Of a stretch of DNA of 64,000 nucleotides, positions 56,888 through 57,439 are shown piece after piece. Under the pieces are notes generated by a model. That model worked only from the letters and a program-made list of their open reading frames with translations. It was not told the origin of the DNA and searched no databases. The position numbers and the translations under genes were made by a program. The DNA comes from Escherichia coli (GTDB lineage Bacteria; Pseudomonadota; Gammaproteobacteria; Enterobacterales; Enterobacteriaceae), in the NCBI RefSeq assembly GCF_003334405.1, contig NZ_QOWM01000002.1; one strand, written 5' to 3'. Positions within the stretch are counted from its first letter, which is position 1, and each line of letters begins with the position of its first letter.

Positions 56888-57439
56888 GAATGAAAAACTT
56901 AGATATGCATTTACAGTTCAATTCATTTTTCGTCATCAGTTAATTACACATAAAATTAAAAGTAAGAATATATCTACCCTGTGAATGAGCAAGGCGGATT
57001 TATATAGTTTGTAATTAGTTTAAATGTAAGCAGTTCGTCAGAGTGCGTATTCCGCTCTTTTCGATCACGGATTGGCCGTTATGACCCGATCTCGATGGAA
57101 GTTATTGGGTGATCCCCTTCCATGAAAATATGCACCGAAGCTCCCGCAGAGGTTTCCGTGGGCGAAGGCATGATTCTGTCCGAGAGCCGGATGTGTTAGA
57201 AGCGCATGTCCGCTTCGATGAGCGGGGTGTGGAAACAGGATTTATGGTCAGGACAGTAAGGCACCGCCAATCGAAAGAGGCGGCAACAGATATGCCTGAC
57301 CTGTAAAATTACCGCGCCACATCTTGACTCTACCCGTTTTCCAAGCGCCCCCCCTTATAGAACGTACACTGGATGGTGATACCGGCTATACATCGCATAT
57401 TTGACAGTCAGCTTGCTGAATTTTTCATTGGCTGCAGCA

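Follow-up and report, generated by a model that had tools for sequence, protein, structure and literature searches.

Insertion sequences (ISs) of the IS21 family end in terminal inverted repeats (TIRs) that consist of two direct repeats spaced 23 bp apart, and in IS5376, an element from Geobacillus, the complete TIR is 55 bp long (PMC10122671). Integration depends on both repeats as well as on the terminal CA, and IstA is able to pair two left ends or two right ends (PMC10122671). Here we describe two copies of a 57-bp unit, located at what will be named hereafter site 1 and site 2, in a 64-kb stretch of the Escherichia coli chromosome (the window, that is, the whole of the DNA that was analysed). 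The unit resembles the TIRs of IS5376 and IS21, known from biochemistry and cryo-EM (PMC10122671), in its paired direct repeats, their 23-bp spacing and a length of about 55 bp, although it cannot be aligned to IS5376 at the nucleotide level. A much closer counterpart is found in the left TIR (L-TIR) of ISEc12, with which the copies share the order of tip, L1, spacer and L2, and whose terminal TG/CA is retained by site 1. Unlike ISEc12, however, the window copies are accompanied by neither istA and istB, nor a matching ISEc12 right end, nor a target duplication, and they have diverged by 9-16%, as against an identity of about 100% for full ISEc12 ends in E. coli.

Two further systems invite comparison. 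Like IS-derived MITEs, the copies are short and non-coding, with the same left-arm inner boundary, the layout of two outward-facing tips placed head-to-head at a palindromic centre being approached at site 1. The MITE relatives described below are dispersed at several loci, one of them being a proven insertion with a 5-bp duplication, whereas each of the two window types occurs at a single locus without target duplication, the arms at site 1 come from two IS21-family elements, and site 2 has one arm only. As for the IS66 family, represented by ISCro1, inverted repeats (IRs) of its type are found near both sites, but the 57-bp unit lacks the GTAAGCG terminus and is absent from ISCro1. It is very likely, in our assessment, that the two copies are ISEc12-like L-TIRs, most probably from a family of non-autonomous mini-elements, and that they now persist as inert scars in a genomic island.

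The repeat pair and the left end of ISEc12

The first-pass annotation had reported a segment at about 57.08 kb that recurs at about 60.93 kb with roughly 80% identity, and the repeat is real. The two 43-mers that it quoted are both present and agree at 36 of 43 positions; they lie at 57088-57130 and 60935-60977, that is, 5-7 bp away from the coordinates it assigned to them (57083-57125 and 60928-60970). An ungapped local alignment covers 57078-57130 and 60925-60977 (53 bp, score 61), and comparison with the complete IS (see below) fixes the limits of the true units at 57 bp each (Table 1), with 81% identity between the two copies, close to the figure first given. Chance similarity of AT-rich sequence is ruled out: among 100 dinucleotide-preserving shuffles of the window, the best 57-mer score over either strand averaged 24.6 (sd 2.1) and never exceeded 30, as compared to the observed 61. 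The unit is present in only two copies in the 64-kb window, and the similarity between them ends abruptly at both edges.

Table 1. Features of the island around site 1 and site 2, with positions in the window
Feature	Position	Strand	Remark
Qat anti-phage system (QatA, KAP NTPase; QatB; QatC, QueC-like; QatD, TatD nuclease)	52328-56887		complete
IS66-family terminal IR stub, GTAAGCAGTTCGTCAGA	57026-57042	+	matches ISCro1 IR GTAAGCGACTCGTCAGA and IR at 60702-60718
ISSso4-like right TIR (R-TIR) arm, 34 bp, TGCGTATTCCGCTCTTTTCGATCACGGATTGGCC	57044-57077	+	tip at 57044; inner end fused to copy 1
Copy 1 (site 1), complete ISEc12-like L-TIR	57078-57134	-	91% to ISEc12 positions 1-57
Group II intron 3' fragment	57135-57333	+	abuts tip of copy 1; 95.5% to plasmid intron
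CBASS-type pair	57440-59351	-	both genes below
2TM/SLATT effector	57440-58015	-	191 aa
Oligonucleotide cyclase	58023-59351	-	442 aa
IS66 transposase, C-terminal part	59486-60007	-	debris block
IS66 TnpA, N-terminal part	59984-60319	+	debris block
IS4 C-terminal fragment	60308-60667	-	debris block
ISCro1-like IS66 fragment	60701-60912	-	right IR 60702-60718 and C-terminal tnpC end; 87-90% to ISCro1 copies
ISCro1-like tnpC end	60732-60917	-	debris block
12-nt link, AGCATATTACAG	60913-60924	.	between IS66 fragment and copy 2
Copy 2 (site 2), decayed ISEc12-like L-TIR	60925-60981	-	84% to ISEc12 positions 3-57
Integrase-proximal arm	60988-61098		common to pheV/pheU islands; includes integrase terminator 61053-61073
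P4-type integrase gene	61081-62406		
tRNA-Phe	62541-62616	-	

A search of a plasmid collection found window positions 57078-57136 to be about 91% identical to sequences in hundreds of IncF plasmids. In two of these plasmids the match sits at the end of a common 2580-bp segment; istA and istB lie within it, and its annotation reads 'IS21-like element ISEc12'. The ends of ISEc12 were set from two insertions with different flanks, one in a repA region (L003) and the other in traD (L004), and read TGCGTA...TACGCA. The two window units align with the first 57 positions of the element so defined (Table 1), and no alignment was obtained with the rest of ISEc12 beyond these positions. The nearest relatives of the two copies differ, being ISEc12 itself for site 1 (91%) and a group of arms located between agn43 and a DUF932 gene for site 2 (88%).

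Read from the tip, the unit is made up of a 17-nt tip, L1, a 6-nt spacer and L2, where L1 and L2 in ISEc12 are GGAGATCACTCAATAAC and CGAGATCGGGTAATAAC, respectively. Copy 1 reads TGCATATTTTCATGGAA / GGGGATCACCCAATAAC (L1) / TTCCAT / CGAGATCGGGTCATAAC (L2), and copy 2 reads TACGTATTTTCATGGAA / AGAAATCCCCCAATATC / ATCCAT / CGGGATCGAGTAATAAC. In both copies L1 begins at nt 18 and L2 at nt 41, which gives the 23-bp spacing. By analogy with the characterized TIRs, the repeated segment would thus correspond to exactly one left TIR in its full extent, composed of the tip and the predicted IstA-binding repeats L1 and L2, and on the strength of these alignments we assign both repeats as orphaned copies of the L-TIR of an ISEc12-like element of the IS21 family. 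It had been proposed initially that the two segments are ends or leader regions of one IS type; they are indeed ends, but the leader alternative falls away with the finding that the unit is the terminus itself.

The outer tip is on the right-hand side in both copies (57134 and 60981), meaning that istA and istB would lie to the left. Neither gene is found inside of either unit, where the sequence consists of other debris. A tblastn search of the window with the IstA protein of ISEc12 returned only a weak 55-aa match at 60032-60193 (E = 0.037), located in an ORF that NCBIfam assigns to IS66 TnpA. The expectation that such remnants would escape detection as ORFs was borne out: both are non-coding IS ends orphaned from istA and istB. 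A coding reading was also considered: both units can be translated on the plus strand into ..TRSRW..* with the same stop, the ORF at site 2 running antisense to the IS66 fragment, but DNA homology to a non-coding IS end fits better.

The context of the two segments had instead pointed to the IS66 family, and it is true that an IS66-type IR lies 36 bp upstream of site 1 and that an ISCro1-like fragment directly adjoins copy 2, as had been noted for the second segment. The 'gtaagcag' motif noticed upstream of the first segment is likewise genuine and corresponds to an IS66-type IR stub, albeit at 57026-57042 rather than at about 57016. Within the window, GTAAGCNNYTCGYCAGA is matched only there and at 60702-60718 (none expected by chance), the two IRs (GTAAGCAGTTCGTCAGA and GTAAGCGGCTCGCCAGA) being in the same orientation and the first of them an orphan stub of 17 nt. 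However, a complete ISCro1 (L028; with IRs, tnpA, tnpB and tnpC) has no significant match to either 57-mer, only chance matches of 9-18 nt, and the unit matches the tip of ISEc12, an istA/istB element. Moreover, the distance from IR to unit is unequal, 52 bp at site 1 versus 223 bp at site 2. That the repeats would be ends or leaders of an IS66-family element is thus the least credible of the explanations weighed here, and the IS66 pieces are best read, from these comparisons, as neighbouring debris of a different family and not as the source of the repeat.

Two records were encountered that have the length of one ISEc12-like unit. NZ_CP079815.1 is a Klebsiella 'plasmid' record of 2581 bp, and a high-coverage Enterobacter contig (L021), also of 2581 bp, has the L-TIR at its end and codes for a complete homologue of IstA (93% identical). 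Both are probably assembly products of a repeated IS or circular IS forms, and not plasmids.

Architecture of the two sites within the pheV island

The right end of the window carries yqgA and a tRNA-Phe gene, which together with the P4-type integrase gene identify the region as a pheV genomic island. The cargo includes a complete Qat anti-phage system, all four proteins of which have strong PADLOC or PGAP matches, a CBASS-type pair, and a stretch of transposase debris (59486-60917) formed of IS66 and IS4 pseudogenes. The same CBASS-type pair, together with its 3' flank from about 57351 onwards, is also found on an IncX1 plasmid (L006), where it lies beside HEPN genes. Site 1 is located in the gap between the convergent qatD and SLATT genes, that is, at the seam of the Qat and CBASS cassettes, in a region that PGAP leaves unannotated (56888-57439), and site 2 is flanked by the IS debris on one side and by the 3' end of the integrase gene on the other.

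From left to right, the gap at site 1 holds the IS66 IR stub, a single G at 57043, a 34-bp arm, the L-TIR and a group II intron fragment. The 34-bp arm is identical at 33 of 34 positions to the right-end tip of the ISSso4 family, where that tip adjoins istB. Judged from its two arms, the segment 57044-57134 can be described as a 91-bp chimeric mini-element with two outward-facing tips that derive from two IS21-family elements. The terminal TG/CA (...ATATGCA at 57134) and both GATC cores are intact in copy 1. No target-site duplication is seen, the flanks being CAGAG and CCGAA. The inner end of the 34-bp arm reads ...TTGGCC, as does the centre of a 64-bp ISSso4 mini-element, whereas the full IS has ...TTGGCATC at this place, which suggests that the chimera may have been formed from mini-elements rather than from full IS copies. 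Two other readings of this stretch were rejected. The GTGCG at 57043 is not the 5' end of a group II intron, as the intact relative of the intron starts differently and the segment corresponds to the ISSso4-family R-TIR tip; and the left flank does not extend into IS66, the plasmid match that seemed to indicate this being a chance similarity beside a full ISSso4 copy.

On the other side, the intron fragment is cut exactly at the tip of the IS21-type end. It comprises the last ~39 nt of ltrA, domain V (at about 57184-57217), a long domain VI and the intron 3' end at 57333, and it is followed by 24 nt of 3' exon (57334-57357) that the window and the plasmid-borne intron have in common. Over 57135-57357, the identity to the 3' part of an intact intron on the Buttiauxella plasmid pBTX_57 is 95.5%. 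Rfam recognizes the pBTX_57 intron with 104 bits for domains D1-D4 and 38.8 bits for D5-D6, and the window copy with a weak D5-D6 match only (17.3 bits), one base pair of domain V being broken. The flank of the CBASS cassette, shared with the IncX1 plasmid that bears the same two genes, begins at about 57351. Of 5,426 complete E. coli genomes, 250 contain the region 56890-57420 with at least 99% identity, and in these the site 1 block is single-copy and fixed; the chimeric type of site 1 was found at this one locus only (250 genomes).

At site 2, the terminal dinucleotide TG has changed to TA (...ATACGTA at 60981) and the L1 core GATC to AATC, two changes by which this end should be inactive. 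The identical sequence is found in the same context in 61 E. coli records and in that context only. The ISCro1-like fragment, in which PGAP recognizes a frameshifted transposase pseudogene, lies directly inside of copy 2, with homology to ISCro1 stopping at 60912. Compared with ISCro1 and ISEc12, the 12 nt that separate the two could be a degenerate continuation of the IS66 sequence or, to judge from their letters (TGC..TATTAC), a vestige of an R-TIR tip. No partner arm is recognizable at site 2; nor is there a target-site duplication, the flanks being unrelated. The tip of copy 2 lies 7 bp from about position 60988, where homology to other pheV/pheU integrase arms starts, indicating that the turnover of island cargo starts right at the orphan IS end. 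An older state of the site was not recovered from sister pheV/pheU islands, whose homology to the window runs only from about 60988 rightwards.

A shared inner boundary and related mini-elements

Both window copies end at the same inner nucleotide (..|GTTAT). To see this boundary in a wider context, 5,426 E. coli genomes were searched with the leftmost 150 bp of ISEc12. Full-length ends were about 100% identical to the query, and in a sample of 60 matches spread across the ranking, the diverged partial matches (79-96.5% identity) all began exactly at IS position 57 (19 of 19). Likewise, at least 120 metagenome loci match the inner part of the unit. Of the 120 that were listed, about 66 correspond to full IS copies, 34 are located between agn43 and the DUF932 gene and have the same inner boundary, seven are joined to the IR of another IS, seven to a 66-bp gene fragment, three are in the context of site 2, one is a further mini-element, and two are spurious.

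We attribute the shared boundary chiefly to a family of miniature elements. An 85-bp E. coli element (L024) consists of 28 bp of the ISEc12 right end followed by the 57-bp left end and is flanked by a TGCAT duplication; it is an insertion, as a diverged copy of the locus (L155) shows the empty site with a single TGCAT. A version of 87 bp from Photorhabdus (L014) has an ATAAC duplication and the same 57-bp arm boundary. Altogether, the combination of an R-TIR arm and the 57-bp arm, with a total length of 83-88 bp, was encountered at four unrelated E. coli loci (L024, L151, L152 and L153) and in Photorhabdus; the three further E. coli homologues are 70-80% alike, one being in O157:H7 and one on a plasmid. 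The 85-bp query is covered over at least 80% of its length in 683 genomes. No published description of these mini-elements was found in the literature searched.

Other compact elements were observed alongside. ISSso4 has a 64-bp palindromic mini-element (L005, 3002-3065) composed of a 34-bp right arm and a 30-bp left arm with the centre TTGGCCAA; it is complete in 1,600 of the 5,426 E. coli genomes, and a single genome can contain as many as 50 matches to it if full IS ends are counted. A chimera of 92-93 bp, found between agn43/cah and the DUF932 gene (L008-L010, L025 and L026; at about 3466-3556 in L008), combines an ISSso4-like left-end arm with the ISEc12-like 57-bp left end and holds a fixed position, at a distance of about 120 bp upstream from the start codon of the DUF932 gene, in many E. 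coli islands. Furthermore, an IS with the terminal IR CC(C/T)CTGTGTCAGCATAGTTGTCGCCTCAATTTTT occupies the exact centre of ISEc12-type mini-elements, separating their right-end arm from the 57-bp arm, in L015, L027 and L145 as well as in seven of the 120 metagenome loci listed; its hosts are E. coli pAA-type plasmids and Photorhabdus.

The simplest account of the window copies would be two independent, ordinary truncations of full ISEc12-like insertions that left 57 bp by chance, with no mini-element stage. In keeping with this, both copies lie within heavily rearranged IS debris and have no target duplication, and a class of solo arms that are 100% identical to ISEc12 and joined to the 66-bp gene fragment, in two contexts and with a breakpoint within 0-3 nt of the others, demonstrates that elements of this kind have been truncated recently. 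(The 66-bp partner itself is not a piece of ISEc12, ISSso4 or ISCro1, as determined by comparison with each.) However, independent truncations would not be expected to share the identical inner nucleotide, which is common to the two copies and to every diverged partial match sampled, as well as to the 34 agn43-linked copies among the 120 metagenome loci listed and to the Photorhabdus element. That is, inner endpoints pile up at position 57, and by our own estimate two random endpoints would fall within 2 nt of each other in a 2.58-kb element in only ~0.2% of cases. In addition, site 1 is joined to the tip arm of another IS21-family element with both tips pointing outwards, which is not a product of random deletion. 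Independent truncation is therefore judged improbable, and descent from mini-elements is the reading we retain for both copies. For site 2, the pointers to such a descent are just two, the shared inner boundary and the likeness to the agn43-linked arms, and here it may be presumed only by extension.

How the boundary itself came about is a separate matter. At least six different partners are found attached to the 57-bp arm, either at precisely this nucleotide or no more than 3 nt away from it. Most of these junctions could be accounted for by one founder deletion with subsequent events at the palindromic centre. Such a founder does not account for the solo arm that has 100% identity to ISEc12 and is attached to a gene fragment, a case that would suggest repeated breakage at the inner edge of L2. 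One might then think of this edge, 57-60 bp from the tip, as a recurrent, mechanism-driven breakpoint that produces modular 57-bp cassettes, which become fused to foreign arms (TIRs of other IS21-family members among them), and hence chimeras that could perhaps be mobilized in trans, but we regard this as rather unlikely. Speculatively, breakage and rejoining might be directed by IstA-bound TIRs, the TIR being protected by the bound IstA, or by hairpins at palindromic centres.

Origin and significance

Related copies of the unit at a fixed position between agn43 and DUF932 in many E. coli islands might be taken to mean that the unit is a conserved host cis-element under selection, for instance a protein-binding site, a promoter or a small RNA. 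The data from the window point the other way. Site 1 has convergent genes on either side, site 2 is situated downstream of the integrase terminator and no longer has the terminal CA or the L1 core, and the conserved part coincides exactly with what is, by analogy, the transposase-binding architecture. Neither unit matched an Rfam family, at E-values up to 1 over 55000-64000 and up to 10 over 57100-57420, and consensus scans for promoters and terminators at both sites gave nothing above shuffled expectation; one 'terminator-like' match inside site 2 turned out to be the L2/L1 sequence itself. A host cis-element is thus very improbable, and the scans for RNA families, promoters and terminators give no evidence of a present function in the window. 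Most likely, both copies are inert scars at cassette junctions.

From the observed identities, boundaries, lack of a transposase and dispersal of the relatives, we infer the following order of events, along with mini-element descent and inertness. The starting point would be a family of miniature elements, each with a short right-end arm joined head-to-head to the 57-bp left arm, and both window copies would descend from this family rather than from independent truncations. At site 1, the partner arm would have come from an ISSso4-like element, yielding the 91-bp chimera between the IS66 IR stub and the group II intron fragment, and later rearrangement would have deprived the chimera of its target duplication. 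At site 2, the partner arm would have been lost and the remaining arm would have decayed. The end state would be inert scars of nested insertions and deletions at the cassette junctions of the pheV defence island.

In itself, the repeat pair is an ordinary feature, and the recurrent breakpoint is a minor question. The analysis serves nevertheless as an aid to annotation, given that the orphan ends, the ISSso4-like arm, the IS66 stub and the intron fragment are all invisible to ORF-based annotation. Furthermore, this debris marks the exact joins of the Qat cassette, the CBASS cassette and the integrase arm, which helps to reconstruct how the defence island was assembled. Thousands of similar orphan L-TIRs exist in E. 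coli with one inner boundary. If that boundary reflects a specific breakage mechanism and not an old founder, it would, if true, tell something new about the biology of the IS21 family.
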